From assembly GCA_016699445.1 (NCBI GenBank), contig CP064976.1:2222619-2286618 (forward strand): a stretch of DNA of 64,000 bases, given 5' to 3'. The notes beneath the pieces are model-generated. The model made no database searches. It was not told the origin of the DNA and worked only from the letters and a program-made list of their open reading frames with translations. This DNA comes from Deltaproteobacteria bacterium (GTDB lineage Bacteria; UBA10199; JACPAL01; GCA-016699445). Below, in pieces: positions 4,265 to 47,355 of the stretch (positions are counted from its first letter, which is position 1; each line of letters starts with the position of its first letter). The translations under genes were made by a program, and so were the position numbers.

Positions 4265-4397
4265 TCCCCCACCACCCCTTCGGGGAGCCTCCCCCATAAA
4301 TGAGGGAGGCCAAAAAACAAAAAATCGCAAAATAAATGACCCTCCCTTTTTAGGGGAGGGAAGTTCCTATCATGAAATTATTGAGGGTGGGGTAGAG
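4265..4397. repeat. Structured repeat, family A copy 3 (with ~25-nt internal insertion); 3' arm overlaps the UbiA-like gene C-terminus
   Basis: Same 5' half as copies 1-2; the GGGTGGGGTAG arm read on the minus strand encodes the terminal ..LPHPQ* of ORF 4378..5238. Confidence 0.75.
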
Positions 4398-5238
4398 AAA
4401 TCCACACGCCTACAAAAAACAAGATCGAAATAATCCCGTTTACATTAAAGAAGGCCGCGTTGACCTTCGAAAGATCTTTGTCTGACACTAACGAATGTTC
4501 ATATAAAAACAATCCAGCAATTACGCTGAGAGTGATGAAATAAGTCCAGCCAAAGTGGTTTAAGATTCCGAAAGCTAAGAGCAGGAGTAAGGTGATCAGG
4601 TGAAAGAGGCGTGCGAGCAGTAGAGCTTTGCTAATACCCAGAGCCACCACCATTGAATGCAATCCTGATTGTTTATCAAAGTCATAATCTTGAGTAGCAT
4701 AAATCAAATCAAAACCCGCGACCCATAAAGTGACCGCAATACCTAAAAGGACAGGGATGAAAGCCACTTCTCCACGCATGGCGACCCAAGCGCCAATGGG
4801 AGACATGCCTAAAACACAGCCTAAGATAATATGAGAAAGAGATGTGAATCGTTTTGCCAACGAATAACCATAAGCGGCGCTCAGCGCGATGGGTGAGAGT
4901 TGAAATGCCAGAGTATTAATTTGTGTGCATAAAATGACAAAGAGGATTCCACAAAAAATAGAGGTGATCAGGACTGATTGTTTCGAGAGAATATTTTGAG
5001 GAATGTGACGCACCGCTGTTCGTGGATTTTTGGCATCGATGTCGGCATCAACCCAACGATTAAAAGCCATGGCTCCAGTGCGCAAAGCGACCATGGCTAA
5101 AACCATCAAAAATAAAATCCGAAAAGGCGGATGTCCTTGAGAGGCAATCATGAGAGAGGCGAGAGCAAAGGGAAGGGCGAAAATCGAATGCGAGAACTTC
5201 ACCATTTCGCCAAATTGTCTGATTTTCTTAATTTCCAT
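4378..5238 (-). CDS. UbiA-family aromatic prenyltransferase (MqnP/4-hydroxybenzoate polyprenyltransferase-like)
   Basis: 286 aa polytopic membrane protein with NRWVDADID (NxxxDxxxD) motif. Confidence 0.8.
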   Translation of the reverse strand: MEIKKIRQFGEMVKFSHSIFALPFALASLMIASQGHPPFRILFLMVLAMVALRTGAMAFNRWVDADIDAKNPRTAVRHIPQNILSKQSVLITSIFCGILFVILCTQINTLAFQLSPIALSAAYGYSLAKRFTSLSHIILGCVLGMSPIGAWVAMRGEVAFIPVLLGIAVTLWVAGFDLIYATQDYDFDKQSGLHSMVVALGISKALLLARLFHLITLLLLLAFGILNHFGWTYFITLSVIAGLFLYEHSLVSDKDLSKVNAAFFNVNGIISILFFVGVWISLPHPQ

Positions 5239-5782
5239 ACCGAGGCCTCAAGTCATTCCCAACCCCCAAATGATCCAAGACGCGAGCAATCACGGTATCT
5301 ACCGCTTCTTCAATCGTTTTGGGTTTTGAATAAAACGACGGAATCGCGGGAATGATCTCAGCTCCGGCCAAAGCCAAAAGGCGCATATTCTCAATATGAA
5401 CCAGGTTGAAAGGCGTCTCGCGAGGGACGAGAATCAACGTCTTCTTCTCTTTCAGAAACACATCGGCAGCCCGTGTCAGCAAGCTATCGGAATAGCCATG
5501 AGCGATCCGCCCCAAAGTGCCCATGCTGCACGGGATGATGACCATAGCGTCATAATGAGCTGTCACGGCGGAACCACTCGCAAAGGGTGCAGAAAAATCT
5601 TTTTGCCCAAAAAATGGAACGTCGAGAGATGTATAATCCGTGCTCATCTCATCAAGGCCGATTTGCAAAGCATTAGGACTCGCCGTGAGTTCGAGAGAAT
5701 GCCCAGCCTCTTTGAGGCAGTGAATAGTGCGCGTGGCATAAATAGCTCCGCTAGAGCCGCTGATTCCGAGGACAATTTTCAT
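5228..5782 (-). CDS. ubiX: Flavin prenyltransferase UbiX
   Basis: 184 aa, MKIVLGISGSSGAIYA N-terminus and full-length UbiX/Pad1 flavoprotein character; overlaps start of downstream UbiA-like gene. Confidence 0.85.
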   Translation of the reverse strand: MKIVLGISGSSGAIYATRTIHCLKEAGHSLELTASPNALQIGLDEMSTDYTSLDVPFFGQKDFSAPFASGSAVTAHYDAMVIIPCSMGTLGRIAHGYSDSLLTRAADVFLKEKKTLILVPRETPFNLVHIENMRLLALAGAEIIPAIPSFYSKPKTIEEAVDTVIARVLDHLGVGNDLRPRYGN

Positions 5783-5792
5783 AGGATGATTT

Positions 5793-7007
5793 TCATGCTT
5801 TCTCCTCAGGTGGTAAATGCCAAGGCTGTATGTTCATTCCAAGAAAGGGATAAGGATTTTCAAGAGGGACCATGAGGTAAAACTGGTTTGCTTTCTTCCC
5901 TAATTCTTTTTTGGCTTTCTCGAGTTGTTTCAACGTATCTTGAGTGATGGTGCGTGTACTTTTGATTTCATAAACGTCCCAGAGTGTTTGATTTTGGACC
6001 ATCAGATCAATTTCCAACGACGGCGTCTTGAGATAATAGTGTGGAGGCATTTCCCCTTGGCTCGTCCAATGTTTGATCAGATTAGTCACGACCAAGGTTT
6101 CAAAAAGAGGCCCAAACTGTGGAGAGCCTGCGATGAGTGAGGGATCCCGAAACCCCATTAAATAACAGGCAAGACCGACATCCATAAAATACATCTTGGG
6201 TGACTTCCGGATCCGTGACGAAATATTTTCATAAAAGGGTTCCACAAGATGGACTTGATAGGTTTGCACGAGAAGATTCAGCCAGCGCTGAGCGGTAGAA
6301 GGAGAGATGTTGGCGTCTCTGGCAAGATCACTGACGTTAAGGATTTGCCCAGTGCGGATAGCACACAATCTCACAAAACGTTCAAAGGAAAGAAGGTCAG
6401 CTACTTGTGCCAAAGAACGGATATCTCTCTCGAGATATGTATTCAAATAACTTCGATGCCAATCCGTAGGAAGGATATTTTGATCCCTCCATAATTCCGG
6501 AAAAAAACCTCGAAATAAAATTTGGGATAACGTGTCTTCCTGATGCCATTCTAAATCAATGGATGCGGAAATTTCTTTAACCGTAAGGGGATAAAGTGTG
6601 ATCAACCCAACACGTCCAGCCAAAGACTGAGTTACTTGTTCCATCATTAAAAAATTCTGGGAACCCGTCAGGATATACTGACCCTTTTCATCACGTTTTG
6701 CGTCGATACGACTTTGGAGATAGCTGGTCAGGTCAGGAACATTTTGGAATTCGTCAAAAATTACCGGAGGAGGGTAGCGATCCAAAAAGCTTTTGGGATC
6801 TTGCAGTACTTGCGCTCTCAGATCCAGGTCTTCAAGAAGGACATAATGATGAGTCTTGCAGTGCTCTTTGATAAAAGAGGTCTTTCCGACTTGTCGAGCC
6901 CCTGTCAGGATAATAGCGGGAAAAGACTTGAGAAAACGATCAAAAACACCCTCAAATTGCCTCGTAAACATTTGAAAAATAATAATATATGCAAATTGAT
7001 TATTCAA
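5793..7007 (-). CDS. AAA+ ATPase with DUF4143-type C-terminal domain
   Basis: Walker A GARQVGKTS near N-terminus; ~400 aa architecture typical of the ATPase/DUF4143 family; true start may be an internal Met. Confidence 0.7.
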   Translation of the reverse strand: MNNQFAYIIIFQMFTRQFEGVFDRFLKSFPAIILTGARQVGKTSFIKEHCKTHHYVLLEDLDLRAQVLQDPKSFLDRYPPPVIFDEFQNVPDLTSYLQSRIDAKRDEKGQYILTGSQNFLMMEQVTQSLAGRVGLITLYPLTVKEISASIDLEWHQEDTLSQILFRGFFPELWRDQNILPTDWHRSYLNTYLERDIRSLAQVADLLSFERFVRLCAIRTGQILNVSDLARDANISPSTAQRWLNLLVQTYQVHLVEPFYENISSRIRKSPKMYFMDVGLACYLMGFRDPSLIAGSPQFGPLFETLVVTNLIKHWTSQGEMPPHYYLKTPSLEIDLMVQNQTLWDVYEIKSTRTITQDTLKQLEKAKKELGKKANQFYLMVPLENPYPFLGMNIQPWHLPPEEKA

Positions 7008-7024
7008 TAATTAATTTGCATGAA

Positions 7025-7714
7025 TTATTTATCCGCCACGATTAAATGCGAAATACCACCCGTTTGTGCGGTAATTTTGATGTTCTTAAAGCCTGTTTGT
7101 TCTAATAATTTTCGGTACTCTTCCGTCGTGTAAAATTTCCGCACGGAATCGCGCAAATGTTCATAAGCCGACTTATTCTTAGACACTAAGGATCCTAATA
7201 CTGGAATGACAACTTCCGCGTAGGTGATGTTGAAAAGCTTCGGGAGAAGCTCCGTGGGCTTGAAGAATTCTAAGACCACGAGACGTCCGCCGGGTTTTAG
7301 CCATTCGTAAATATTCTGGAGTGCGAGGGGATTGTCTCCCACATTGCGCATTCCATAAGCCACCATCGCACCATCATAAGAAGAGCGGGGGATATCCAAG
7401 GCCAGTATATCCCCAATCTGAATTTGAATCTGCTTGCGTTCTTCTGGCGTCAAAAGGGCTTCACCTTTTTTGAGCATGTTTTCAGAAAAATCCACAGCGG
7501 TGATCTGAGTCATGGGATTGGTTTCCAAAAGTGTTTTGGAGAGAGCCAAAGTCCCGGCACAGAGATCCAGGATTTTCTGAAATTTTTTCGAATCAGAAAA
7601 TTCTTTCATCCCTTGCCGCCGCCACCGACGGTCGACTTGAAAAGAAAGCAGCGAATTCAACAAATCATATTGAGGCGCGATGGAGTCAAAAAGTTTCTGG
7701 ATGTGTTCGGACAT
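7025..7714 (-). CDS. ubiE: Demethylmenaquinone/ubiquinone C-methyltransferase UbiE/MenG
   Basis: 229 aa class I SAM methyltransferase with UbiE-type motifs (LDLCAGTL, VAYGMRNV). Confidence 0.85.
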   Translation of the reverse strand: MSEHIQKLFDSIAPQYDLLNSLLSFQVDRRWRRQGMKEFSDSKKFQKILDLCAGTLALSKTLLETNPMTQITAVDFSENMLKKGEALLTPEERKQIQIQIGDILALDIPRSSYDGAMVAYGMRNVGDNPLALQNIYEWLKPGGRLVVLEFFKPTELLPKLFNITYAEVVIPVLGSLVSKNKSAYEHLRDSVRKFYTTEEYRKLLEQTGFKNIKITAQTGGISHLIVADK

Positions 7715-7746: not shown

Positions 7747-9810
7747 CTATCTTCCATTAGGTCTTGGAAATGGTCCGGCATCTGCCGCAAAACCTATACG
7801 TGTCGTTTCAGCTCTGAGTAATGCTACTCTCATTTGTCTGGCACGAAAAGCGTCTGGATGCTTGGCTTCTGCTAAATCATCAGGTTTGAAATGTTTTACG
7901 AGTGCGGCAAAAGCTGGACGGACTCCCAATGGTGAATAGCCAAACATATTATGAGGAGATCGAAATCCTGTAAGATCACGAGGTATATCGGGTGAAGGCA
8001 CAGCACCCACATGGAAATTATTAGCCATCATGATGCGTTCAGCATCAGGAATCTTATCATCTCTGACATGCATGCCAGCGATATTACGCCGTGGAATGTA
8101 TTCATTGGGCACGAAAAGCGCTCCCTTCCGACGAAGAGGCGCATAAGGTGAAGGGAAAGGAAATGAAGAGATTCGTGTGCCTGAATCAAATAAGGCATTA
8201 CTTCTTCCTCGTTTGATATTAGTTTTCATTATTTCATAAATCGCTGAAGGATCTTTGCGACTTAAAAATCCTCCTGTTGTATTCAATAAATGCCCTCTCA
8301 TCACAGGAACAAAATTAAATATTTTTTCGGCGATGATAGAGTCTGGTTCAAGACCGAAAAGATATAAAGAACCAATGATGCCACAATAATCAAAAGCTCC
8401 TGTGTGATCCCAGGCTGAAATATTCCCTTGGGAAGGTTGTCGTTGTTGATCATGTCCTGAAAAAAGAAGATCAGCTCCTAGGATATTTTCGATTCCTTCG
8501 GGAACTCGATGCCTAAACATAAAATCTTTATCTGATTCACTTCCAATGATTCGGATTCCTGAGTAAGCATTGACAAGCATGGGTAGCGCCCATCGATTCG
8601 CTATCTGATGGTCATACTCTTGCTGAGTCAGTTTGCCATTTCTCAAATCGCTAATAAGATGTCGAGGGTGAGATGTGAGCTCATATAATAACTCCAGTGA
8701 CTGCATTCCCGTAGGCCCTTGATCGATGCGGTACGCTTGAGTTCTGGAAAGAAAAGTTGTGATGGGAATTTGAATATCCCATTTTTTAAGTATTTTTTGA
8801 GCGGCTTCATGTAAGTTCCAAAGTGCATTAAAACTTTTTTCTTCTCGTTTTTTTCGTTCATTTTCACGAGCGTTTTTATCTCCACCAATCATGGTTTGAT
8901 TATAGGCTATGTAGTTTTCAGTGAGAGATTTGTAAGCATTTCGAGCTACTGTAAACTCATCACATTCTTGAGACGTAGCTCTGTCTTTAAATTTGAGAAA
9001 AACATTGTCGTAAACAGTCAGCTGCCATTCGAGCTCAATATTTTCTATTTTGAGATGAAGCGGAAGTGCTTCTTGCCAAAGCTTATACTCTCTTTCAAAT
9101 GAGTTTTCTTGAGTACTAGATGGTGAAGCAAAAAATAATTCACGATAATCTTCATTAGCTTCCAACGCTTGAGCGTATAAGCCCGAGAGTTTGTCTTGTA
9201 TCTCTTGTGGTAAAACTGCCATGACGCGATCGTAAGCTGCTTCACTCCATTCAAGATCCGCTGCATGAAAACGTTCATAAGACGCCCGTCTTTCAGCTGT
9301 TTCAATGTGTGAAGGAATCGCTTCATAAACAACTTTTTCTTCAACAAGTTTTCTAACGGCTGCAGGATCGGTGACCAGATGGGCAGGAGGGGGTGGGGAT
9401 TTAGGAAATTCGCGAATCAAGCGAGCTCCTAAATACCCTAAAACTGTAGAACTTTTTCTTCCCAAGGTATCAATCGCTTCAACTCCTGGAGCTTCACTCA
9501 CAGAAACATTCAAAGCTTCTGCAATATTTTTATTAAAAATAGGAGCCAAAGAAGGGTGATAACTATGAGGTTGAAGCGTCGTAAAAAAGTCTCGTGCTTC
9601 AGGGATGGTTTGAGGAGGCGTTGATGACAATCCCACTAGATTTTGATCCAAAGATTTTAGCTCTTGATGTAAGTACTGAGCGATAGCCATTATTGGCGCT
9701 TCGCTCAGTCTATCTGTTTTCTGTTGGGCTAAAAAATCACGAAAATTAAGTGTGGATAAAAAATGGCTCGTGGCAAAAGTCAGGGCTTGGTTTGTTGAAG
9801 GGGAAATCAT
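7747..9810 (-). CDS. Hypothetical protein, 687 aa, no recognised domain; polar uncharged N-terminus
   Basis: Long ORF, 28-nt spacing to upstream gene, N-terminus MISPSTNQALTFATS. Confidence 0.6.
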   Translation of the reverse strand: MISPSTNQALTFATSHFLSTLNFRDFLAQQKTDRLSEAPIMAIAQYLHQELKSLDQNLVGLSSTPPQTIPEARDFFTTLQPHSYHPSLAPIFNKNIAEALNVSVSEAPGVEAIDTLGRKSSTVLGYLGARLIREFPKSPPPPAHLVTDPAAVRKLVEEKVVYEAIPSHIETAERRASYERFHAADLEWSEAAYDRVMAVLPQEIQDKLSGLYAQALEANEDYRELFFASPSSTQENSFEREYKLWQEALPLHLKIENIELEWQLTVYDNVFLKFKDRATSQECDEFTVARNAYKSLTENYIAYNQTMIGGDKNARENERKKREEKSFNALWNLHEAAQKILKKWDIQIPITTFLSRTQAYRIDQGPTGMQSLELLYELTSHPRHLISDLRNGKLTQQEYDHQIANRWALPMLVNAYSGIRIIGSESDKDFMFRHRVPEGIENILGADLLFSGHDQQRQPSQGNISAWDHTGAFDYCGIIGSLYLFGLEPDSIIAEKIFNFVPVMRGHLLNTTGGFLSRKDPSAIYEIMKTNIKRGRSNALFDSGTRISSFPFPSPYAPLRRKGALFVPNEYIPRRNIAGMHVRDDKIPDAERIMMANNFHVGAVPSPDIPRDLTGFRSPHNMFGYSPLGVRPAFAALVKHFKPDDLAEAKHPDAFRARQMRVALLRAETTRIGFAADAGPFPRPNGR

Positions 9811-9838: not shown

Positions 9839-11647
9839 TTATGCGGCTACTTGAAGAGGTATCGACTTATCGTATTCATACTTTTTCACAAGTTTAGAGA
9901 CTTCAAATAGAAGTTGTTGGATAGCCGCTTCATCTTTTTGTGAAGAGGTCAGATGTCTTTTCATTATTGATAGCAATCGTCGTTTCATTTCTTCTCGATC
10001 ATCTTTTGCTTTTTGAGGAGGGATAGCTCGGATGCGAGCAATGATAGTGAAATAACGTTCTTCTTCTGAAGTAAGTTTGGTTATTTCATCTTCACTTATT
10101 TCTGTATTGAGAGCCGATGACCATTGAGTGGCGAGATTTGCAAGATACTGATCTGCAGGGCTGTAAGCACGTATAAGTGCATGGACTTTATCTATGATTT
10201 CTTGATCGGGAGTGTCTGCTGTTACATAAAAACCACCCGTCTGACGAAAATCAATAGTTCCTCCCGTAATGATAGGCTGAATGAATGGAAAAGTGTCTGT
10301 GAATTTTGGATCAATCGTAGTGCCTCCTAAAATATCAATGACAGAAATAAATACAGCTTTATTCATTTTTGCAGAAGTAGCTTTTGCAAGTTTAATTAAG
10401 CCAAAAATATTATCATAACGTTCAGGATGTTCTAATTTTACCACATTGTCATACATCGTGGGTATATCTAGAGTACCATTGTCTCGATAAACACGTGGAG
10501 CTCGTCCTCCTTGAACAAAAACGGCTGGCTCAATACCGAGTTTTTCAACGTTGTTTACAGTTTCATTAAAAGCTTCGGTTTGTGAGTCTTTGTTAGTGTT
10601 ATCACCATTCTGTTTAATCGCTGGTGGGAGAGCTAATACATCCATTAACCAAGAAAATAGAATCATTTTAGCTGCACGATTATTTCTAAAATTACTAATA
10701 TTTGCCATGAATCGTATTAAAGGACGAAGCGCAAATAAAGTGTAATTCGTCCACATCGTATGTCCATAAAGAGCATGAAAGATAGGTGTTCCTTTTGAAA
10801 CGTTTATTAAATTATCGAAACCCTGAGATGTCATACTCATCTTGTAGATTCGTGCTTGTCTTTGAGCCCAATAACCTAAAGCGTACCCAATGGCTTGTGT
10901 AAACTCAGGTGTGGCTTTTGCTTTACCTCCCATGAAAACTGTAGCGATATTGACAACAGTTTGAACAAATCCTTCCGCATGGACAGACGTGCGTCTAGCA
11001 AGTCCGAAAATTGTAGAAGCAGTATTAAGAAGTCCTGCATAGAAAGCTTTTTCAGAAGGAATTCTTTCTACACCCTCTCCATAGCGAGGCATGTTATTTT
11101 CTAACAAGTCTTGATGTTCAAACTCTTTAGGAACATCAGCCCCCAAAACTCCCAGGGCATTATGCTCAAACCTTTCCCAAGCATCCATTGTCAGCATCGC
11201 TCCTGCCGCCATTTGATTTTTGATGATAGCGTTTTCAACTCTATTGCTGTGATCTAAGGCTGCTAATGTAGAACCTAAAACGGCAGCAGCTGCCATTTGA
11301 GCTGGGTGAGAACCATAAGCATAAGCTATAAAAGGCATTAGCAAAGCTCTCCAGGGACTTAATTTCGAGTCCATTCTTCCAAATCGTTCGTTCCAATAAG
11401 CGAGTGCAGAACTTCTTTCTGGATTCATTTGCTTTCTTAAATCATCGGGCAGGATGGGACGAAATCCTCTGGCTAAGAGTCTGAGAACGGGTACCGTATA
11501 AGTAAGAGTCATAAGAGCATCAAGTGCGTAATTCGTTCCTGTCAAAACAGGTGCTGCTTGAGCTAAAGCTTCAAGGGGTTGAGTGTAGGCCGCTATTCCA
11601 ACAGCACCAGGAAGTACGCGAGCTGTAATAGAGTTTGGAGATGTCAT
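9839..11647 (-). CDS. Hypothetical protein, 602 aa, no recognised domain; polar uncharged N-terminus
   Basis: Long ORF, N-terminus MTSPNSITARVLPGAVGIA; AT-rich 200-bp upstream spacer. Confidence 0.6.
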   Translation of the reverse strand: MTSPNSITARVLPGAVGIAAYTQPLEALAQAAPVLTGTNYALDALMTLTYTVPVLRLLARGFRPILPDDLRKQMNPERSSALAYWNERFGRMDSKLSPWRALLMPFIAYAYGSHPAQMAAAAVLGSTLAALDHSNRVENAIIKNQMAAGAMLTMDAWERFEHNALGVLGADVPKEFEHQDLLENNMPRYGEGVERIPSEKAFYAGLLNTASTIFGLARRTSVHAEGFVQTVVNIATVFMGGKAKATPEFTQAIGYALGYWAQRQARIYKMSMTSQGFDNLINVSKGTPIFHALYGHTMWTNYTLFALRPLIRFMANISNFRNNRAAKMILFSWLMDVLALPPAIKQNGDNTNKDSQTEAFNETVNNVEKLGIEPAVFVQGGRAPRVYRDNGTLDIPTMYDNVVKLEHPERYDNIFGLIKLAKATSAKMNKAVFISVIDILGGTTIDPKFTDTFPFIQPIITGGTIDFRQTGGFYVTADTPDQEIIDKVHALIRAYSPADQYLANLATQWSSALNTEISEDEITKLTSEEERYFTIIARIRAIPPQKAKDDREEMKRRLLSIMKRHLTSSQKDEAAIQQLLFEVSKLVKKYEYDKSIPLQVAA

Positions 11648-11850
11648 GATAAAATTCCCTTTCTATTAAGATTCTTCGTAATTCTTTTAAAGAAGTTGTG
11701 TTTTGTGTGAGAAAAAAATGAGATAATAAAAATTTTGTAAATATTATAGAGGGTTAGGATGAAAATTTTGTTTAAAAAATAAAAGTAAGCCTACGAAAAG
11801 AAAAAAAGATGGTGAGTTGAAGCTGGGACTGTTTGTTCTGAAAAAAACGA

Positions 11851-13548
11851 TTAGTAAAACCGAGTATTATTATTAGCCGCCTGAATTTTTCCTAATGTCA
11901 TCGCTTGCATGCGGATGGCAGCAATTTCTAAATTGCGGGCTGTTTCTGCCGCTGTGTCGCCTTGATAGTCACTTACTTTCAAAATCCCGCAAGGTGCTAT
12001 CATGACCGTTTGGTTTTGTTTAACCCCTTGACGTAAGACTTGTTTGATATTGGTTGGTAAAATTTGGCCTGTACCGCAGATAGCATAGACGACAACATAA
12101 GTATCATTTGAATATTTTTCATTTGTATGTGCTGCAAAATTAAAAGCTCCGGACCGAAAACGTAGAGCTCCAGTTTCTTCATTTCTATCGGGAGTCTCTT
12201 TTCGTTTGCCTTCAGGCATAACCCATACAGTAGCACTTTGATCTCCAGAATTATCCACCCATTGAGACGCTGTTTTTTCTAATTCTAAATAAGCAGCATT
12301 TCCACCTTCTCTATCCAGATAAAAATGAGGAAATGTTCTTATCGTGCTGTCGGCACTCCAAAGATCTCGATTTGCAGGGTGTAAAAAAGGGTTTTTGCCT
12401 AAAACAAGAGATGTCTCCAGTTCTTTTTTAGAAGCAAAAGCCCCAGGCTGAACTCCAAATAATAAAATGGGATCCAGATGAGCTAAGTGATTACTAATGG
12501 CGATAATTTTAGATCCTTTAGCGATCAATTGTTGAATTACTTCCATCAGGTTTAAATTGAGAAAAATAGGGCGCCAATTTTGATGTTGAAGTAAACTTAA
12601 AGACCCAACGCCTAAAAGTTTTTTATAATCGTGACGAGAGGGCGTATTTAGTGTGCTCGATGCCGCTAAAGCGGCAATATGCATAAAATCAGCAATAAGC
12701 GTTGTTAGAGCCCAATGACTATAATAATGTTTGCCTCCAGCCCCACAACTATCTCTAAAAGCCTCAAAAAAAGCATCCGCATCTGTCATCGTATCTCTAT
12801 GAGCAGAGTCTCGAGGAGGTAACTCTCCAAAATAATCGTCAAAGTCTCTTGTACTAATAGGTCCTTGGCTGACATGTTTTAAAAACCGTTTTACATGAGG
12901 GTGGTCTTGAAAAGCTTCGATGCCTCCACGAGCTAATATTTCTTCAGCTACTTTGGGATCTTTAGAGAGTAGTAAATGTGCAAGTTCAAAAGGTGTGTTT
13001 AAAGTGGGGTTTGCTTTTGCTAATTTTAAACTTTGAACGACACTTCTCCACAATCCATGATTAAATGTATGGGGGCTGGTTTGTGTGGGTAATTCCGATA
13101 ACCATTTTTCAGCTTCTGCTTGAATCCCACTAATATCAATAAGACTATCTCGAGAGTATTCAAAAAGCGCTCTTCTAACTTCTTCTTTCTGGCTTAAAGC
13201 TTTGCAAACACCCGCATGATCGGCAATTTCTCTAAGAGCCGACGCGGATTGATGAATATCAGAAGACGTAATAAGCTGACGATGTCGAAGTTTATTATTT
13301 AAGCGTTGTTTTTCAGGAAGATCGGGATGTTTTCTTAGGGTCCGTGTATCGATCGCAGAAACATATTCATTGGTTATTCCTAAAATAGACGACATTGTAT
13401 TGGTATAAGGATGTTTTGTCCCAGGAGTTAGGCGAAACAAATGATCGATCAAATGACTAAGTGCACGTTGGACATCAAGTCCGCTTTGGACACCATCCGC
13501 TAAAGCGGGAGAAAGAAAAACTCGGGTTGGTGCTACTGTTGATATCAT
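11851..13548 (-). CDS. Two-domain protein: unknown N-terminal domain + C-terminal lysophospholipid acyltransferase (PlsC/GPAT-like) domain
   Basis: HX4D motif in IAISNHLAHLDPILL, motif III-like VWVMPEGKRK, motif IV-like TYVVVYAICGTGQILP; paralogous to 15525..17198. Confidence 0.7.
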   Translation of the reverse strand: MISTVAPTRVFLSPALADGVQSGLDVQRALSHLIDHLFRLTPGTKHPYTNTMSSILGITNEYVSAIDTRTLRKHPDLPEKQRLNNKLRHRQLITSSDIHQSASALREIADHAGVCKALSQKEEVRRALFEYSRDSLIDISGIQAEAEKWLSELPTQTSPHTFNHGLWRSVVQSLKLAKANPTLNTPFELAHLLLSKDPKVAEEILARGGIEAFQDHPHVKRFLKHVSQGPISTRDFDDYFGELPPRDSAHRDTMTDADAFFEAFRDSCGAGGKHYYSHWALTTLIADFMHIAALAASSTLNTPSRHDYKKLLGVGSLSLLQHQNWRPIFLNLNLMEVIQQLIAKGSKIIAISNHLAHLDPILLFGVQPGAFASKKELETSLVLGKNPFLHPANRDLWSADSTIRTFPHFYLDREGGNAAYLELEKTASQWVDNSGDQSATVWVMPEGKRKETPDRNEETGALRFRSGAFNFAAHTNEKYSNDTYVVVYAICGTGQILPTNIKQVLRQGVKQNQTVMIAPCGILKVSDYQGDTAAETARNLEIAAIRMQAMTLGKIQAANNNTRFY

Positions 13549-13688
13549 TTAGAAAGCTCTTTTCCAGAAAACTTTTTATTAGTATTACATTGATGTCTTA
13601 AAAGTACGTTTAATCATTATCGACATTATAAATAAAAAAGTTGCCTAATATTTTTTTAAAAACTTTTATCCTTTTTAGATATTTCTCC

Positions 13689-15464
13689 TCATTTATTTCC
13701 TAAATAATAAGCCAATACGGGGGCTAATGAGTGGTAAATCATTTGAAAAGCTACCAGTTGAGAGGCTCGTGTGAATGCCATAGTTGGTTGGCTTCGCAAA
13801 ACTCTTCCGGTAATACCTGATCCTCGTGCATAAGCAATTTCTTGTAGAGCCGCTAGAATGACATAAGGAAGAGCTGCTGCCAAAGCGAAGGTCGCGATAA
13901 GAGCAGTAGGATTATTGAGCGGTTGTAAGAAGATTTCAGTTGCCACAAGGGGTGCTGTGATTCCCAGCGCGGAACGTGAGTCTTGGTACGTTTCTTTTTG
14001 TGGAGATAGAGACATAAGAAGAGAGGTCAAAATTCCTGCGGCTGCAGCCCTTAAAGTTTCATGAGTATTATGAGTCGGTGCTCCTGGGATATGTTGCTGT
14101 AAAAAGGATCCAGCAAAGGCTCCAGATGTCAAACCAACAGCTTCAGAAATTAAGCTTGCAGCTTTTTGGGGTATCGTTGGTAGTATAAGCGGATTTTCTA
14201 TTTGCTCACGAGTGATGAGAAAATGCCCTGGATGTCTTGGGTCGGATCTTTTAATGGTTCGATAACCGGCCAGTTCATGTACAATGCTTCCGTTATGTTC
14301 TTGGACCCACTTAAGAAGTTGAGGCTTGGAAGCATTGACAGCAAAGGTAATTCCATTTTTTCTTTCGGGATTAGCATGGTCTAAGGCAAATTGAAGCATG
14401 TCCATATCTGACGGGGAGTCGGTATACGCAGCAACTGTTTCCAGTTTTAATCCACGTTCTTTAAATAAATCTGAAAGTCTTGTGAGTGCCCGAGCTTTTT
14501 CAACATCATGAAGGTAAACCATTTCTCCTGATAGTTTTTGAGTTTGAGGATCTACGGTAAAACTAGTCCCCATGACATTTTCAGGCGGCAAGCCTAAATC
14601 GCGAGCATGATCTTCAATAAGAGGTTTAGGGGAGGCGGAAACAAGAAGGACAAGATGGCCCGCTTCATAATGCCGCACAATTTCATCACAGAGAAATTCA
14701 CTAATACCTTCTCGTCCATGAAGCCGATGCCAATGAGAGAGACTGGCTCCAATTTTGAGAGGGTCCATATCTTTGATCGTTTCAGCAATGAACTTTTGTA
14801 CTTCTTCACGATTGATATGTCCTTCTCTTACTTCTTTTATCCGGGCTTTAAGTGAGGGGATAAGGATCTTTAAAATCTCTTTCTCCGCACCGGTTTGTTC
14901 TTCTAATGTAGTTTTTTTAAATAAGACTTTGAAGGCAATACGCCCAATCCAATCCATCCATCCTTGTCCTGCTCGAGTCGTTCCATCAACGTCAATCAAA
15001 ACAACTTTTGGTGAGTTATCTTTGTATTTTTCAGGGTGAGTCAGGACATCTCCCAATGAAATAGGGGTCCGATAAGAGGAAGCATTGATGTCGACAATTC
15101 CTCGGATTTTGGCCCTTGCAACAGCGGTTTTCAATAAAATGCCTAGGGTGGTATCATAGGGAATTTTAGTGATAGTTTCTCCAAGTAAAATTTGGAGAGT
15201 GTGTTCTGGTCTCGTTAGTGGTGTTAAAAATTGAGAAGTTGTGTCTGTATTTGGTAAAAAAGTTTTCAGGGCATTAGGGATATATTCTGCAGGAACCCCT
15301 TGAGCCCCAAGTGCTTTAACGGCTGCGGTAATATCATTTTGAGCAAAAGCATCATTAATAATCGGTGTTAAGTTCTCTCTAATATTCGGAGGAAGATGAG
15401 GCATGTAAGCTCTAAAATCAAATATAGAACCTGCTGTGAGAGTGGGTCCTGTAATAGTATTCAT
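13689..15464 (-). CDS. HAD-IB superfamily phosphatase domain protein with hydrophobic C-terminal region
   Basis: Motif I VVLIDVDGTTRAG (DxDGT), motif II LVLLVSASP, motif IV AAYTDSPSDMDM; C-terminal 150 aa hydrophobic. Confidence 0.7.
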   Translation of the reverse strand: MNTITGPTLTAGSIFDFRAYMPHLPPNIRENLTPIINDAFAQNDITAAVKALGAQGVPAEYIPNALKTFLPNTDTTSQFLTPLTRPEHTLQILLGETITKIPYDTTLGILLKTAVARAKIRGIVDINASSYRTPISLGDVLTHPEKYKDNSPKVVLIDVDGTTRAGQGWMDWIGRIAFKVLFKKTTLEEQTGAEKEILKILIPSLKARIKEVREGHINREEVQKFIAETIKDMDPLKIGASLSHWHRLHGREGISEFLCDEIVRHYEAGHLVLLVSASPKPLIEDHARDLGLPPENVMGTSFTVDPQTQKLSGEMVYLHDVEKARALTRLSDLFKERGLKLETVAAYTDSPSDMDMLQFALDHANPERKNGITFAVNASKPQLLKWVQEHNGSIVHELAGYRTIKRSDPRHPGHFLITREQIENPLILPTIPQKAASLISEAVGLTSGAFAGSFLQQHIPGAPTHNTHETLRAAAAGILTSLLMSLSPQKETYQDSRSALGITAPLVATEIFLQPLNNPTALIATFALAAALPYVILAALQEIAYARGSGITGRVLRSQPTMAFTRASQLVAFQMIYHSLAPVLAYYLGNK

Positions 15465-15524
15465 AATTATCCTTTCATGAGTTTCTGTAGTCGCAGGTGA
15501 TTTGTAAAAGTTTCGAATATTTTT

Positions 15525-17198
15525 TTATTTTTTGTTTAGTAGTGAAAAAAGCTGATGATTTCCAGCTGCTTGAACAGCTCCGAGGCTAGCAGCATGTGCT
15601 CTCATTATAGCTCTATGGAGATTATCTGCAGCCTCACGAGGGTTAGCCCCCTCATCAATATGTTCTTGAAGAGGGATGAGCCCATCAAAGCTCACAACAA
15701 CAGGTTGTTTCCTCTGAACGCCTTCTTTCAATAATTGATTTATTTTTGAGGGTAGAGCTTCGGATGTGCCATAGAGAGACACAACAACTACATATGTATT
15801 TCCCTTTTCTCTTTGAACGCGTGCAGCAAAATTAGCAGCTCCATGATGAAAGAAAGATTCACCTACTTCTTGGCCACGTATATCAGAGGTTCGTGACCCT
15901 CCCGGAAACCAGCAAATGGTTTTTCCTTTTTCGATTTGTTTTAAAGCAGCTTGCTCTACTTCTTGATAAGCTTCAGATTTTTTGCTTCGATCTACGGGAA
16001 TATGATTTCCTATGCCTAGAAGAGAATCTTCATGCCATCGAGAAGGGTCTAAGGGGTGATTGAAAGGATTATTTCCAAGTATTGGAGCCTTCCAAAGCTC
16101 TCTTTTAGCTATAAAAACCCCTTTGAAAAGGGCATAGAGTATCAATGCATCGAAGTGACTTCGATGGTTAGAAATGGCAATAATATTGGCCCCATCTTTT
16201 TTTAGCTTTTCTATTTCTAGTAAAACTTCGTGGTTTAAAATAAAAGGCTGCCATTGTAGGTGTTGCATAAGGCTAACAGTCCCCATGCTTAAGAGCCTTT
16301 TATATGAAGTGCCGGATGGATCAATCAAATGACTTCGTGTGGTGAGAGCTCCTACTTGTAAAAAATTAAATACAACTTCGGCTATGCCAAGCCGACTCAA
16401 CGTTGGTACGCCTTCAGGTCCACGACTTCTTTTTATTGCCTCGATAATTTGCTCGGCCTCACTTTTTTCTGGAAAGAAGGGGTTGGCTTCTGGGGGTTCT
16501 AAGGCAAGATAATGAGCGATATCAAAAGGCCCAATAGGACTTTGTTTAGTTTTATGTAAAAGCTTTTCAGCATTGGAAAGACGTAAAATGATCTCTGATA
16601 TTGAGAGTCCTAAAGCACCTGCATAAAGGCTAAGTGTCGAAAGATTTAATTGATTATTAAAAAGCTGATATAAAAGTATGGAAGGCAATCCAATGGCATG
16701 AAGTGCTGATCCCATCTCTCCCCAATAAGCAGCTTGTTTCCATAGGCTGTTAGAAATAGGGGTTGGGATATAAGTCTGACAAAGGCTTTTCCAATACTCC
16801 ACTTCGCGACAGACTTGTGTTACGTTGGTTTTTGTATCTTCTAGGCTATCTTCAAGTGATTTAAGAAGTTCTTTTGAATTGTGTAAGAATACAACTAAGC
16901 TTGGGTAGTTTCCGATTTCTCTTAAGGCATGGGCAACATCTTCAGGTCGAGTCGATCTAAGCATGGCTCTGTGATGAAGATTTTTTTCTGAAGAAGGGTA
17001 TTTCTTCACATATTCTTCCACAGCTTTTGCAATCATAGTTGTAAGCGTTGGAAAAGGATTGTTTTTATTGAGTTCACTGGCTTCAAAAATATGATTGCTA
17101 AGCTGAAATAAGGCCGCTCTTGTATCATCTGTGCATTTGATGCCTTCTTTAAGTGAAGGTGTAAGGGGTAGTCGCGTTTGAGTAGGTGCAACAATCAT
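15525..17198 (-). CDS. Two-domain protein: unknown N-terminal domain + C-terminal lysophospholipid acyltransferase domain (paralog of 11851..13548)
   Basis: HX4D in IAISNHRSHFDALIL, motif III ICWFPGGSRTS, motif IV TYVVVVSLYGTSEALP; N-terminus MIVAPTQTRLPLTPSL parallels MISTVAPTRVFLSPAL. Confidence 0.7.
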   Translation of the reverse strand: MIVAPTQTRLPLTPSLKEGIKCTDDTRAALFQLSNHIFEASELNKNNPFPTLTTMIAKAVEEYVKKYPSSEKNLHHRAMLRSTRPEDVAHALREIGNYPSLVVFLHNSKELLKSLEDSLEDTKTNVTQVCREVEYWKSLCQTYIPTPISNSLWKQAAYWGEMGSALHAIGLPSILLYQLFNNQLNLSTLSLYAGALGLSISEIILRLSNAEKLLHKTKQSPIGPFDIAHYLALEPPEANPFFPEKSEAEQIIEAIKRSRGPEGVPTLSRLGIAEVVFNFLQVGALTTRSHLIDPSGTSYKRLLSMGTVSLMQHLQWQPFILNHEVLLEIEKLKKDGANIIAISNHRSHFDALILYALFKGVFIAKRELWKAPILGNNPFNHPLDPSRWHEDSLLGIGNHIPVDRSKKSEAYQEVEQAALKQIEKGKTICWFPGGSRTSDIRGQEVGESFFHHGAANFAARVQREKGNTYVVVVSLYGTSEALPSKINQLLKEGVQRKQPVVVSFDGLIPLQEHIDEGANPREAADNLHRAIMRAHAASLGAVQAAGNHQLFSLLNKK

Positions 17199-17326
17199 AA
17201 GTTTTTATTATTTCCTAATTATTTACAGTCTTTTATTAAGCATCGTATTGTCTTTTCAAAAGTTGCTAAGTAATTTTGAAAAAAATAAATAAAATCATGG
17301 ATTAGATTATTATCTTCTCATGACGT

Positions 17327-18517
17327 CTAGCATGATTTGCCCGCTGCCCACCCGGACGACCAGGCCCATTGGAAGTTGTAGCCGCCGAGTTCTCCTGTGA
17401 CGTCCAAGACTTCTCCAACAAAAAAAAGTCCTGATATGGATTTTGATTCTAGGGTTTTGGATGAGAAATGGTCAGTGTCGACCCCACCTCGGGTCACTTC
17501 AGCGCGTGCGTAGCCCACTGTTTTTTCGGGAGTCCATGTCCAATGATGAATTTTTTCCACGAGCTCTAGAATTGTTTGATTCGAAATTTCGACAAGCGGT
17601 TTGGAAGGAAATTCAAACACAGTGGCTAAATGCTCTGCCAAGCGGGATGGCCAAAAAATTCCCATGAGAGTTTTAAACGTTTTTTTTTCGCCCTGATTTT
17701 TTTTCTCCAAAAACCATTCTGACAGTTTTTGATTTTGACACCAATCAATCTCAATAGATTCTTTTTGCTTCCAATAGAGTGACGCTTGAAGAGCTGCTGG
17801 ACCGCTTAAACCTTGATGAGTGATGAGTAGGTCGTCTTCAAAATTTTTTGTTTTGGTTCGAATACACACAGGGGTTGAAAGACCTGAAAGCGTTTTCCAT
17901 AAATCCTGAAATTCAGGATTTCCACGAAAACCATCGAGGGCAGGGGATGTGGGGATGATGTTCATGTGAAACTGTTTAGCAATTTCATAGCCAAATCCCG
18001 TGGCTCCAATTTGTGGTAGCGACAGTCCACCCGTCGCGATGACGAGAGTCTCTGAAGAAAAATTTCCCTGTGAGGTTTCTGTTAAAAAATTTTCCGGATC
18101 TTTTTGAATCGAGAGGACTTTTGTCTCCAGAAGTATTTTGACCCCAGCCTGTTCGCATTCATGAAGGAGCATGTTTAAAATATCTTTAGCGGAGTTTTGA
18201 CAAAAAAGTTGTCCGGGTTTTTTCTCCACGTAAGCAATCTTGTGTTTTTGAATCAATTCCAAAAAATGATGAGGGGTATAACGAGAGAGGGCGGATTTGC
18301 AAAAATGAGGATTTTGAGAAACAAAATTTTCAGGAGTCGTGTTGAGATTGGTGAAATTGCACCGACCACCACCTGAAACCAAAATCTTCGCTCCCGCTTT
18401 GGTATTGTGATCGATGACGACAACTTTTCGTCCTCTTTTGGCCGCTTCAATCGCGCAAAAAAGTCCCGCAGCTCCAGCACCGATAATGAGTGTGTCGTAA
18501 TTTTTCTTAATATTCAC
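17327..18517 (-). CDS. FAD-dependent oxidoreductase, HI0933/BaiN-like family
   Basis: N-terminal dinucleotide fold YDTLIIGAGAAGLFCAIEAAKRGRKVVVIDHN and GGGRCNFTN motif. Confidence 0.8.
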   Translation of the reverse strand: MNIKKNYDTLIIGAGAAGLFCAIEAAKRGRKVVVIDHNTKAGAKILVSGGGRCNFTNLNTTPENFVSQNPHFCKSALSRYTPHHFLELIQKHKIAYVEKKPGQLFCQNSAKDILNMLLHECEQAGVKILLETKVLSIQKDPENFLTETSQGNFSSETLVIATGGLSLPQIGATGFGYEIAKQFHMNIIPTSPALDGFRGNPEFQDLWKTLSGLSTPVCIRTKTKNFEDDLLITHQGLSGPAALQASLYWKQKESIEIDWCQNQKLSEWFLEKKNQGEKKTFKTLMGIFWPSRLAEHLATVFEFPSKPLVEISNQTILELVEKIHHWTWTPEKTVGYARAEVTRGGVDTDHFSSKTLESKSISGLFFVGEVLDVTGELGGYNFQWAWSSGWAAGKSC

Positions 18518-19352
18518 CGTGCGGGTTTACAGCATGATCATGTAAATCATTCAAGAATGGAAGAAGGCCGGTTTCCACAGAGAGGTTGGGCATGATTGGT
18601 TGGCCACTAGAATTTTGACAAGTGATGGTGATGACTCCCGAAGTAAGACCACCATCCTGACTTAAAAAAGAAGCTTCAAATACTGCTTTGCCTAGAGGAC
18701 CTCTTTGATTCTGTTCAAATCCTGAAAAAATTAGTGCAGAAAGTGTGATGGTTGCTGGGGTTAAATCTCCAGCTGGGATGAGACCGGATCGTTGAGCTAA
18801 TTGATAGACGAGTGTTGGTATTTGCGCACTATGAGTCTCATTTCCAAAAAAAGCTTGTGCGATAGCCATCAAGTCGGGGTTAAATTTGATTCTAATACTG
18901 AGTTGTCCAGGAGAATCTGGACCAGGGCTGCTGGCGATTTCCGTTGTCACTCTGTATGAAATGGAAGCGCCTACACCTAAAATCAGTGTATCCGTGAATG
19001 AAAAAAGCGTTCCAGCATTTGCTTGATTTGGATCTAAACTCTTCCTGATCAATGAGATCTGTTTGTCACTGTCTTGATGGAGATAATTTATTTTTGAGAT
19101 TCCACCAGCGGTAGATGTGTTCTCTGACCAACCTGCGGGCACTGGAGGTCTTGGTTCTTCGTGAGAGCGGGCGAGTTGATGGTAAATAAATGGAAGGAGC
19201 ACATGTAAAGGATATTCTGTTTCCATTTTTTTATACATACTTGCAACGATGCCATCTGTATGTGCCGATAACGGAGGAAGGTTTAATCCTGTTGTAGGTT
19301 CGTAAGAAGCAGTGTTTAAAAAGCTTGTGACATATGGGGTTATTGTTGCCAT
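18507..19352 (-). CDS. Hypothetical protein, 281 aa; polar uncharged N-terminus
   Basis: ORF with N-terminus MATITPYVTSFLNTASYEPTTG; overlaps the start of the downstream oxidoreductase by 11 nt. Confidence 0.5.
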   Translation of the reverse strand: MATITPYVTSFLNTASYEPTTGLNLPPLSAHTDGIVASMYKKMETEYPLHVLLPFIYHQLARSHEEPRPPVPAGWSENTSTAGGISKINYLHQDSDKQISLIRKSLDPNQANAGTLFSFTDTLILGVGASISYRVTTEIASSPGPDSPGQLSIRIKFNPDLMAIAQAFFGNETHSAQIPTLVYQLAQRSGLIPAGDLTPATITLSALIFSGFEQNQRGPLGKAVFEASFLSQDGGLTSGVITITCQNSSGQPIMPNLSVETGLLPFLNDLHDHAVNPHGEY

Positions 19353-19470
19353 TATTTTCTCCTTAAACCTTATCGCACTGACATTGAAAAAGTTTCGTCT
19401 TTATTTATTTCATCTTTATATATTTCTTCTTGCCGAACTCTTGATTCAAGGGAATGAGTAGCCACTCATT

Positions 19471-20484
19471 ATGAAGAGAATTGATTCTAAACAGGCTCTA
19501 AATATTTGGGAAAGTGATTGGACGTCACTTCGATCTCAATCTCATGAAGCGCGTTGTGAACATTATCCTGATGGGCAGGCGAGCTATGTTGTCATGCGGA
19601 TTGTGAGCTATACCAATGTTTGTGTGGCGGATTGTTCTTATTGCGCCTTCTACCGTCGACCCAATGACGATGGGGCTTATGTCCTTTCGAAGGAAGATAT
19701 TTTTTCTAAAATTGACGGACTTCTAGCTGTTGGTGGGTCGGTGGTGGCTATGGAAGGGGGATTTAATCCCAAGCTTAAGATTGAACATTACGAAGATCTT
19801 TTTGCGTCCGTGCGTAAGCGCTATGGAGATAAGATTGAGATTTATGGGTCTACGATTGTCGAAGTGATTTTCATTGCGAAGAGTTCGCGTATTTCACTGG
19901 AAGAAGCTCTCATCCGTCTCAAAGAAGCTGGATTGCGTTGGATTCCGGGTGGTGGTGCTGAAATTTTAACCGATGCCTGGCGCGCAAAGCTTTCTCCTAA
20001 AAAATATTCGGTGAAAGATTATATTGAAGGCATGCGAGTGGCACAAAAACTTGGACTCGGTACCACAGCGACGATGGTGATTGGTTTTGGTGAAACAGTT
20101 GCCGACCGTATTGAGCATCTCGAACATATCCGTCGTCTTCAAGATGAGACAGGTGGTTTTGCGAGTTTTCTTTTGTGGACCTACCAACCCCTCAACACTC
20201 CCATGGGAGGCTCTCTCACCAGCAATGACGACTATCTTCGCTCAGTCGCCTTAAGCCGTTTGTATTTGGATAACATCCCTGTGATTCGTGCGTCTTTTCT
20301 CACTCAATACGACAAAGGCCCCGAAGCTCTCACTGCCGGTGCTCATGATTTTGATATCCCTCTAGAAGACCAAGTCACCCAACTGGCCGGCGCCAAGATT
20401 GAAGAAAATGTCGATCGTGTGTTGGAGTGGGTAAAGAAGTCTGGGATAACCCCTCAGAAAAGGCTCCCATTTTCTTTGAAATGA
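19471..20484 (+). CDS. Radical SAM menaquinone biosynthesis enzyme, MqnC/MqnE family (futalosine pathway)
   Basis: 337 aa; CxxxCxxC cluster motif in SYTNVCVADCSYCAF. Confidence 0.8.
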   Translation: MKRIDSKQALNIWESDWTSLRSQSHEARCEHYPDGQASYVVMRIVSYTNVCVADCSYCAFYRRPNDDGAYVLSKEDIFSKIDGLLAVGGSVVAMEGGFNPKLKIEHYEDLFASVRKRYGDKIEIYGSTIVEVIFIAKSSRISLEEALIRLKEAGLRWIPGGGAEILTDAWRAKLSPKKYSVKDYIEGMRVAQKLGLGTTATMVIGFGETVADRIEHLEHIRRLQDETGGFASFLLWTYQPLNTPMGGSLTSNDDYLRSVALSRLYLDNIPVIRASFLTQYDKGPEALTAGAHDFDIPLEDQVTQLAGAKIEENVDRVLEWVKKSGITPQKRLPFSLK

Positions 20485-20618: not shown

Positions 20619-21438
20619 ATGTTTCCCTATATAAATATGAATCTTCATTGTTTAAAAATTAAAAGCCAAACCGCCCCTCATAAAACCTTCTTTTTCCTCC
20701 ACGGTATTATGGGACGTGGGAGAAATTGGCAGCGCTTTGCGACAGAGCTAGTTCAGCGAAAACCAGATATCGAAGCGGTATTGGTCGATTTGCGTTTGCA
20801 TGGCGAGTCTCAAGGTTTTGATCCACCGCATACAGTACGAGCTTGTGGTGAAGATGTGGTAGGGGCAATTCATGAATTGCCCTTACAAAATGAAAAAAGT
20901 GATCGTTGGACATTCGTTCGGAGGGAAGGTGGCTCTGGAAGTTGCGCGACTCGCTCCTGATTTACTTTCAGCAATTTGGCTCATTGATTCATTTCCAGGT
21001 TTGTCTGCAAGGCATGGTGATGCTTGGAAAATGATTGAATGGCTTCAAAAAAATGAAGGTCCTTTTACAACACGGACAGAAGTGCTTAAAAAATTAAAAG
21101 AAGCGCAATTTCCCGAAGCCATCGCTGCGTGGATGGCGACCAATCTAGAACCCGAAGGAAAACTTTTAAAATGGATTTTCCCCGTGAAGGGCATCGCGAG
21201 TCTATTAGATGATTACGCCAAAACAGATTTGACCGACACACTCCTCAATCCACCATGTCCTATACATGTCGTGAAGGGGACAAAGTCGCCTTTGATTACG
21301 GATGATTTAATCCAGAAAATCCAACATTCAAAAACCAGATTTCCAATTTCCCTTCACTTCGTCGAAGCCGGACATTGGGTGCATTCTGAAAATCCGAAAG
21401 AATTGCTAAGAATAATGATGTCATCTTTTAAAGGATAA
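20619..21438 (+). pseudogene. Alpha/beta hydrolase, reading frame interrupted by a 28-bp palindromic insertion
   Basis: N-part FFFLHGIMGRGRNW..DLRLHGESQ (frame 0) and C-part KKVIVGHSFGGKVA.. (frame 1, GxSxG nucleophile); deleting 20859-20886 joins ..GEDV to KMKKVIVGHSFGG in frame. Confidence 0.65.
20859..20886. mobile_element. 28-bp palindromic insertion element, copy 1 (one mismatch)
   Basis: GTAGGGGCAATTCATGAATTGCCCTTAC; same element at 25885-25912; exact excision restores the hydrolase frame. Confidence 0.75.
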
Positions 21439-47022: not shown

Positions 47023-47355
47023 GTGAGCGTGATATTTGAGCTTAAATGTTATCAAGAAGGCGGTCAGATTCCTTTTTCAGAATGGTTGGATGAATTGGAT
47101 GCTAGGACAGCAGGTCGTATTAGAGCTTATACTGAAAGAATGAGGAGTGAAAATTTTGGCGATACGAAAAATGTTGGACGTGGAGTTCTAGAGCTGAAGC
47201 TTAATTTTGGTCCAGGATATCGAGTATACTATCTGCGTGACGGTGTGTCGGTTGTATTGCTTTTGTGTGGTGGTGATAAAGGTTCGCAAGAGAAAGACAT
47301 TCAACAAGCTCATAACTTTGCTCAAAATTATTGGAGGCAACGTGAAAAAAAATAA
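47023..47355 (+). CDS. HigB/Gp49-type addiction-module toxin (RelE/ParE superfamily)
   Basis: 110 aa; ..GRGVLELKLNFGPGYRVYYLRDGVSVVLLLCGGDKGSQEKDIQQA.. matches phage Gp49/HigB pattern. Confidence 0.7.
   Translation: MSVIFELKCYQEGGQIPFSEWLDELDARTAGRIRAYTERMRSENFGDTKNVGRGVLELKLNFGPGYRVYYLRDGVSVVLLLCGGDKGSQEKDIQQAHNFAQNYWRQREKK

Follow-up and report, generated by a model that had tools for sequence, protein, structure and literature searches.

Paralogous PlsC-like acyltransferases with a new all-helical N-terminal module, encoded beside late menaquinone genes in a deltaproteobacterial genome

W557 and W565 are two proteins encoded on the minus strand of a 64,000-nucleotide stretch of contig CP064976.1 (assembly GCA_016699445.1, Deltaproteobacteria bacterium, positions 2,222,619 to 2,286,618), which is called the window below. 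With high confidence, both are acyltransferases of PlsC fold that carry a new N-terminal module. They are paralogs that diverged long ago within a very rare family of membrane-interface acyltransferases restricted to one lineage. W557 (557 amino acids, open reading frame (ORF) 15525..17198) joins the N-module to a PlsC-like acyltransferase domain, and W565 (565 amino acids, ORF 11851..13548) has the same plan with an N-module that lacks a hairpin. An earlier sequence-only reading had proposed full-length paralogy of these two ORFs. Indeed, its coordinates are exact, the N- and C-terminal peptides it quoted are found in the translations, and BLASTP aligns residues 1-564 of W565 with residues 1-551 of W557 at 30% identity and 50% positives (E 2e-80), far above chance expectation. 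W565 has orthologs with 96% (P0001) and 45% (P0002) identity; L and P numbers denote related loci and related proteins here and below. In a neighbour-joining tree, W565 and its ortholog L1_593 form a pair that has W557 as its sister, and P0009 branches next. Thus, the duplication is older than the split from the organism of the metagenome-assembled genome GCA_964555055.1. Against a near-identical strain, the ratio of nonsynonymous to synonymous substitution rates (dN/dS) is 0.16-0.63, which indicates purifying selection.

The catalytic fold of PlsC/LPLAT enzymes is complete in both proteins and includes the His-Asp pair (HX4D) and two arginine motifs (xDR and xGxR). In W557, this domain spans residues 266-557 (15528..16403), with the motifs NHRSHFD at 16149-16169 and FPGGSR at 15891-15908. 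In W565, it lies at 11854..12732, with NHLAHLD at 12472-12492 and MPEGKR at 12202-12219. The HX4D and PEG/PGG motifs named by the sequence-only reading are therefore in place, and its assignment of the C-terminal halves to the PlsC/GPAT superfamily holds: the C-terminal ~230 residues pass the gathering threshold of PF01553 (37.6 bits for W565 and 46.6 bits for W557; cutoff 23), and the fold is PlsC-like. When the HX4D motifs are put in register, this fold begins at about residue 266 of W557 and about residue 272 of W565. Among PDB sequences, TmPlsC is matched by the family profile at E 4e-10 over blocks I-IV, and 215 of its 232 residues, including the N-terminal two-helix motif, align with the W557-family fold. 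Across 13 divergent members, H345, D350, R404, G434 and R436 (W557 numbering) are invariant, so that the H and D of block I are kept in 13/13. The xxDR arginine of block II and the G and R of block III are also present, and block III reads PEGKR in W565 and PGGSR in W557 rather than EGTR. The scores against specific NCBIfam models stay below their cutoffs (29-44 bits vs 103 for PlsC, TIGR00530; 12 vs 260 for YihG; 21.5 vs 300 for OlsA; 11 vs 618 for PlsB). W557 and W565 are members of the PlsC/LPLAT superfamily, with all its checkable hallmarks other than block IV, and by these scores they stand outside canonical PlsC, YihG, OlsA and PlsB. The family fold is about equally near LPAAT (lysophosphatidic acid acyltransferase) and GPAT (glycerol-3-phosphate acyltransferase) structures.

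The N-module of W557 comprises residues 1-265 (16404..17198): a helical bundle (residues ~8-140), a hydrophobic helical hairpin (residues ~150-220, 16539..16751) that is a putative membrane anchor, and an R-S-x-G-x-G-G-x-P linker. The module of W565 (residues 1-272, 12733..13548) aligns with it over the whole length. Across the family, the linker is conserved as I-R-x-S-x-G-x-G-G-x-P-x-x-S-R. Since AlphaFold2 reached a mean pLDDT (predicted local distance difference test) of only 51 on a 4-sequence alignment, a 13-sequence family alignment was used instead, and the resulting model of W557 has pLDDT 80.8 and pTM (predicted template modelling score) 0.83. In this model, the N-module packs against the catalytic domain. 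The bundle is predicted well (pLDDT ~90); conservation and structure begin at about residue 8 with an LSPxL motif. The hairpin is predicted poorly, as helices of low confidence at 152-168, 171-180 and 186-219, and Kyte-Doolittle peaks lie over the same region. The region is two-lobed and clearly hydrophobic in P0005, P0006, P0010 and P0012, and weaker in W557. It is present in most members and deleted in W565 and P0009. The hairpin, which W557 has and W565 does not, is thus the one demonstrable structural difference between the paralogs.

No match to the N-module was found in Pfam, NCBIfam, PHROGs, PADLOC, PDB sequences or PDB folds, where the fold comparison covered solved structures. The extra domains of plant GPAT and human GPAT1 show no likeness to it, with alignments limited to the catalytic domain (237-252 residues). 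No PlsB structure was among the fold matches, hence there was no direct comparison with the PlsB N-domain. The sequence-only reading had proposed a novel N-terminal domain of ~330 residues. Its novelty stands, and its size does not: the module measures ~265-270 residues, and about 60 residues of the region assigned to it are PlsC's own two-helix membrane-interface motif, which by the refuting criterion of that reading counts in part against it, while the rest is unmatched. The N-module is therefore a new, all-helical domain family of ~265 amino acids fused to a known catalytic domain.

This family is also very rare. An exhaustive HMMER search of 1.84 billion protein representatives with the N-module profile gave 15 matches, 2 of which are repeat-protein artefacts. 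The 13 real matches are a 143-residue fragment, eleven proteins of 424-593 residues with N-module and acyltransferase, and P0015 (371 residues), which keeps only the C-terminal part of the module and is probably cut by its contig end. The N-module occurs together with the acyltransferase domain in every full-length member. Word-indexed homolog searches, even with alignments as queries, returned near relatives only, and the exhaustive profile search was needed to see the family. A metagenome scan with the block I pattern retrieved 273 PlsC-type loci, and the N-module was covered in one of them (L007). Likewise, a scan of one genome per species found a single metagenome-assembled genome, GCA_964555055.1, labelled 'uncultured Pseudomonadota'. 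The module thus has no detectable relative outside its own family among the 1.84 billion representative proteins, and it is a new domain family to describe.

The paralogs belong to a co-directional minus-strand run at 7.7-19.4 kb, in the order W281, an HI0933-like flavoprotein (17327-18517), W557, a HAD phosphatase, W565, W602, W687 and UbiE/MenG. The gene flanked by W557 and W565 had been read as a HAD phosphatase, and it encodes an intact enzyme of HAD-IB type (591 amino acids, 13689..15464) with an unmatched N-terminal region of 150 residues and a hydrophobic C-terminal tail. It matches PF12710 (E 9e-16, 59 bits vs cutoff 27) and, below the cutoff, TIGR01490 (E 1.6e-15, 57.9 vs 98.3). Motifs I-IV are intact and all conserved in the ortholog: DVDGT (14979-14993), SASP (14628-14639), K323 and TDSPSD (14406-14423, all on the minus strand). 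A HAD ortholog lies immediately upstream of the acyltransferase gene in L087, and HAD-like genes are placed likewise in L089 and L090.

W687 (7747..9810) has a degenerate PlsC-like core, with HTGAFD at 8389-8406, SGTR at 8173-8184 and a weak match to PF01553 (E 0.028). The best PDB match of the W687-family core profile is again TmPlsC (E 0.002), aligned over blocks I-III through H-x4-[DE], the AK/AQ block, R and GTR. By hhalign, the motifs of the W687 family are in register with those of the N-module acyltransferases, and H-x4-[DE] and GTR are invariant in the W687 family. Relatives of W687 adjoin the acyltransferase family in L001 (8601-11669, 1022 amino acids), L005 (42-1181), L007 (41-5155, 1704 amino acids), L091 (1-744) and L092. 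From these profile alignments, W687 can be taken as a third, degenerate PlsC-like domain of the cluster and as its second orphan family.

The orphan W602 (9839..11647, minus strand) has no family match in the Pfam, NCBIfam and PHROGs libraries and no sequence relative in PDB. A weak relative of 686 amino acids (E 9e-11) is found upstream of the acyltransferase gene in L088. Profile comparison of the acyltransferase family with W602 and with the HAD protein revealed no similarity. W602 shares 75% identity with its ortholog at 6695-8500 of L002 (synonymous divergence dS 0.92, dN/dS 0.19), against 96-100% protein identity in the rest of this strain and dS of 0.002-0.23 in the neighbours of W602. 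With such a dS mosaic along the region, it looks like the W602 allele was replaced by recombination between near-identical strains. The last orphan, W281 (18507..19352, minus strand), has an ortholog with 35% identity (L1_294) at the equivalent position in L001. It also gave the sole PHROGs match of the cluster, a weak one (E 7e-4) to a family of unknown function. No cluster protein has a match in PADLOC.

Most genes of the cluster share a promoter-like motif, G[CA]AAC-TT(T)-N-xCGA[TA] after an A-rich stretch. It is located 20-71 nt upstream of W281 (19373..19394), W557 (17243..17264), the HAD gene (15491..15512), W565 (13620..13642) and W602 (11676..11697), all on the minus strand; W687, which begins 28 nt behind W602, has no detected copy of its own. 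The per-site chance of 0.002-0.006 in shuffled upstream DNA overstates the significance, since the pattern was defined after seeing the sites. Recurrence across genomes is independent support: the motif is found in almost every related locus that was examined, upstream of family members or orthologous genes in L001, L002, L005, L006, L007, L087, L088, L089 and L090, over a GC content of 42-67%. No copy was seen ahead of the L089 acyltransferase gene, in the limited upstream sequence covered for L091-L094, or in the 32 nt that precede UbiE in the window. A generic scan for sigma-70 promoters and terminators yielded no more sites than shuffled sequence. An AAC/CG signature is typical of ECF (extracytoplasmic function) sigma factor promoters, and the cluster motif is best described as a predicted promoter of alternative-sigma type that is ECF-like in this signature. 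The sigma-28 consensus is TAAAGTTT-n11-GCCGATAA (PMC2859248). The cluster motif, G[CA]AACTTT-n11/12-xxCGATAA, shares spacing and -10 core with sigma-28 (FliA) promoters (PMC2859248), but its -35 reads AAC-TTT, not AAAGTTT.

The motif also occurs elsewhere in the window. One copy (52282-52303, minus strand) precedes a 643-residue orphan with an N-terminal transmembrane segment (50338-52269), another (52347-52369, plus strand) precedes a TatT-type TRAP component (52419-53408), and a third (31040-31061, plus strand) precedes a Hydrolase_4 protein (31107-31979). The Hydrolase_4 family includes lysophospholipases and monoglyceride lipases. These three genes may be further members of the regulon.

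The cluster occupies a fixed chromosomal position. Wherever downstream sequence is available (11/11 distinct loci), late menaquinone genes of the futalosine pathway follow directly after the module. The window, L001, L004 and L087 have UbiE as the first gene behind it, and Amidohydro_1 takes this place in L005, L088, L089/L090, L091-093, L094 and the P0013 contig. Beyond Amidohydro_1, the contigs of L089, L091 and L094 are long enough to show UbiE, UbiX and UbiA, preceded by UbiD in L091 and L094 only. The gaps are operon-like (-8 to 47 nt), and MqnC is divergently upstream. In the window, the minus-strand genes UbiE/MenG (7025-7714), UbiX/MqnM-like (5228-5782) and UbiA/MqnP-like (4378-5238) follow, with an AAA_14/DUF4143 gene (5793-7007) inserted between UbiE and UbiX; MqnC is at 19471-20484 and an MqnA/D family gene at 26212-26952. 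Where UbiA, UbiD and UbiX homologs accompany mqn genes, they are predicted to be MqnP, MqnL and MqnM, respectively, and the late steps of this pathway are still largely predicted from genomics (PMC4746308). The synteny extends further, as DnaK, MqnA/D, a weakly radical-SAM-like protein of 351-449 amino acids, MqnC, the module, (Amidohydro_1), (UbiD), UbiE, UbiX and UbiA; this extended block (4378-26952 in the window) was compared with L087, L089, L091 and L094, from uncultured bacteria with a housekeeping identity of only 50-78%. Since DnaK is also syntenic in L089, part of the block conservation may be by descent. In the related loci overall, housekeeping proteins are 50-84% identical to those of the window, and the acyltransferase, HAD and W687-like proteins 22-45%.

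The mechanism that we favor, tentatively, is a sigma-controlled module for acylation and dephosphorylation of membrane glycerolipids. The two arginine motifs of PlsC/GPAT enzymes bind the phosphate of the acceptor, and this points to a phosphate-bearing glycerolipid as the acceptor of W557 and W565. They would move an acyl chain from acyl-CoA or acyl-ACP to glycerol-3-phosphate, lysophosphatidic acid or another lysophospholipid at the surface of the cytoplasmic membrane. The sequence-only reading took the duplication as a hint of two different substrate specificities. The paralogs may prefer different positions or chains and be anchored differently, with W557 bearing the hairpin and W565 being peripheral. 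The N-module would most likely position or gate the catalytic domain at the membrane, or bind partner proteins. The HAD protein, presumably tethered to the membrane, could then strip phosphate from the product or the acceptor, giving lipids of monoacylglycerol or diacylglycerol type or otherwise remodelled lipids, and a dedicated alternative sigma factor would turn on the whole set for conditional remodelling of membrane lipids. A full Kennedy-type route, from GPAT and LPAAT through phosphatidic acid phosphatase to a DGAT-like (diacylglycerol acyltransferase-like) step and triacylglycerol, also fits the gene content, and it was considered only as a speculative sub-case of this mechanism.

The catalytic residues, the fold, the hairpin, the partnership of the genes and the conservation of the promoter motif are observed; donor, acceptor and product are inferred, and so are the way the paralogs share the work and what the N-module does. 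Several observations weigh against such a module. Both window copies deviate from EGTR in block III, and the block IV proline is missing in them: most members have VP, and W557, W565 and P0002 have VV. The scores are far under the canonical PlsC, OlsA, YihG and PlsB cutoffs, so that W557 and W565 may use an acceptor other than a classical lysophospholipid. The window ORFs that were screened included no sigma factor gene. Acyltransferase orthologs are 27-45% identical vs 74-84% for MqnC; judged from such identities, the module evolves two to three times faster than its neighbors, which is unusual for core lipid enzymes. Finally, generic lipid remodelling does not explain the invariant operon-like place upstream of late menaquinone genes.

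This place suggests a different role, which we regard as possible but unlikely: the acyltransferase, HAD and W687-like proteins may, instead of remodelling lipids in general, serve the late futalosine pathway or menaquinone handling as accessory enzymes. For example, they might acylate or dephosphorylate a prenylated naphthoate, a menaquinol intermediate, a prenyl donor, or a lipid needed by MqnP, MqnL, MqnM or MenG. Every one of the eleven loci runs from the module into the Amidohydro_1/UbiD/UbiE/UbiX/UbiA genes or into UbiE directly, with operon-like gaps and a divergent MqnC, and this holds over a GC content of 42-62% and housekeeping identities of 50-78%; the UbiA, UbiD and UbiX homologs are the predicted late enzymes themselves (PMC4746308). 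The three proteins would then belong, unrecognised so far, to the late steps of the pathway at the membrane in this lineage, which we likewise regard as unlikely. They might modify a prenylated naphthoate or menaquinol intermediate or make the lipid on which MqnP, MqnL, MqnM and MenG act, and such membership would explain the fixed place at the operon head in every genome that has the module. However, neither an acyl transfer nor a phosphatase is known to be required anywhere in the pathway, and DnaK, which is unrelated to quinones, is syntenic as well, so that the block may persist by descent. A separate promoter motif, not seen in the 32 nt in front of UbiE, belongs to the module genes, and the content of the module varies among genomes (HAD, W687-like or W602-like; one or two acyltransferases). 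In addition, the conserved phosphate-binding arginines suit a glycerophosphate acceptor.

Two further explanations were weighed. The family could be the housekeeping phosphatidic acid route of the lineage, replacing or complementing PlsB/PlsY and PlsC, with one paralog as GPAT and the other as LPAAT. The near-equal distance of the fold to both kinds of structure, the complete catalytic motifs, and the two or more paralogs per genome in the window, L001 and L002 agree with it, but very fast divergence relative to neighboring housekeeping genes, dN/dS above that of neighbors, variable copy number, and a promoter of alternative-sigma and not housekeeping type make it very unlikely. Even less probable is a reading of the cluster proteins as exported effectors or toxins, with membrane lipids of a host or prey as the targets of acylation or dephosphorylation. 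In its favor, the proteins are orphan, fast-evolving and lineage-restricted, signal peptides are absent from them, and every cluster protein has an N-terminus rich in Ser, Thr, Pro and Ile. Moreover, the two-lobed, moderately hydrophobic region of most members brings to mind inclusion-membrane proteins, and near-identical strains apparently differ by a replaced W602 allele. The Ser/Thr/Pro-rich N-termini were considered as type III secretion signals and set aside, as conservation and ordered structure set in by about residue 8 (LSPxL) and the 64-kb window has no secretion-system genes. The gene content of the window (TRAP transporter, fumarase, thiolase, HemC, MtgA) resembles that of a free-living Gram-negative bacterium, a fixed chromosomal place in a biosynthetic operon is atypical for effectors, and PADLOC matches are absent.

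The catalytic half of these proteins is ordinary, and what matters is its setting. The PlsC fold is used three times in one small module beside a HAD phosphatase, and the position and promoter of this module are strictly conserved at the head of late genes of the futalosine pathway, which has been discussed as an antibacterial target. If the tie to menaquinone is true, an unexpected lipid-acylation step or an accessory machine would be added to this pathway. If it is not, the cluster would still illustrate cleanly how uncultured bacteria place lipid remodelling under the control of a sigma factor, as one regulon.

Several other features of the window were noted. Overlapping plus-strand ORFs at 20619-20960 and 20872-21438 (113 and 188 amino acids) are apparently two halves of one alpha/beta hydrolase, the 188-residue half being 56% identical to a single 265-residue gene product in L001. 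They are probably the outcome of a frameshift, either in a pseudogene or through a sequencing error. The adjacent minus-strand orphan ORFs 35840-36919 and 36822-37505 are ~41% identical and contain internal repeats (...YEIFGQ...), and the larger one has a long Gly/Ser-rich tail. Other large ORFs with no family match are located at 33935-35737 (Q/P/T-rich), 41456-42199 and 42578-43513. A PIN-domain toxin-like gene (61855-62334, minus strand) and a separate HI1420-type antidote-like gene (47207-47671, plus strand) are present, and the related loci L087 and L089 contain HicAB pairs. The listed start of the DnaK ORF (27942-29966, minus strand) is ~38 codons ahead of where DnaK models align, and the true start is probably downstream.

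Compared with canonical PlsC, W557 and W565 have ~265 extra N-terminal residues and score well under the cutoff of the AGPAT (1-acylglycerol-3-phosphate acyltransferase) model TIGR00530, as given above. Their family also has an insert of ~14 residues, NPFxHPxDPxxW, after block II and a conserved C-terminal helix, LxxIQAxMN. With squash plastidial GPAT (1K30/1IUQ), ~250 residues of the catalytic domain align, whereas the N-module is far larger than the extra part of the plant enzyme and has no detectable similarity to it. A further difference is that plant plastidial GPAT is soluble. The phosphatase domain of the land-plant sn-2 enzymes GPAT4/6/8 is HAD-like, and the annotation of Rv2483c of Mycobacterium tuberculosis is that of a HAD-PlsC fusion. 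Among conserved PlsC homologs, Rv2483c has been listed as well (PMC10593935). Unlike in fused HAD-PlsC enzymes, the HAD and acyltransferase proteins described here are separate ORFs in all loci, and the HAD protein differs from bifunctional enzymes by its own unmatched N-terminal region and hydrophobic tail. In land plants, the PlsC-superfamily acyltransferase and the phosphatase of sn-2 GPAT4/6/8 together yield 2-monoacylglycerol, and these enzymes thus provide a precedent for an acyltransferase that is functionally coupled to a phosphatase (PMC5945757).

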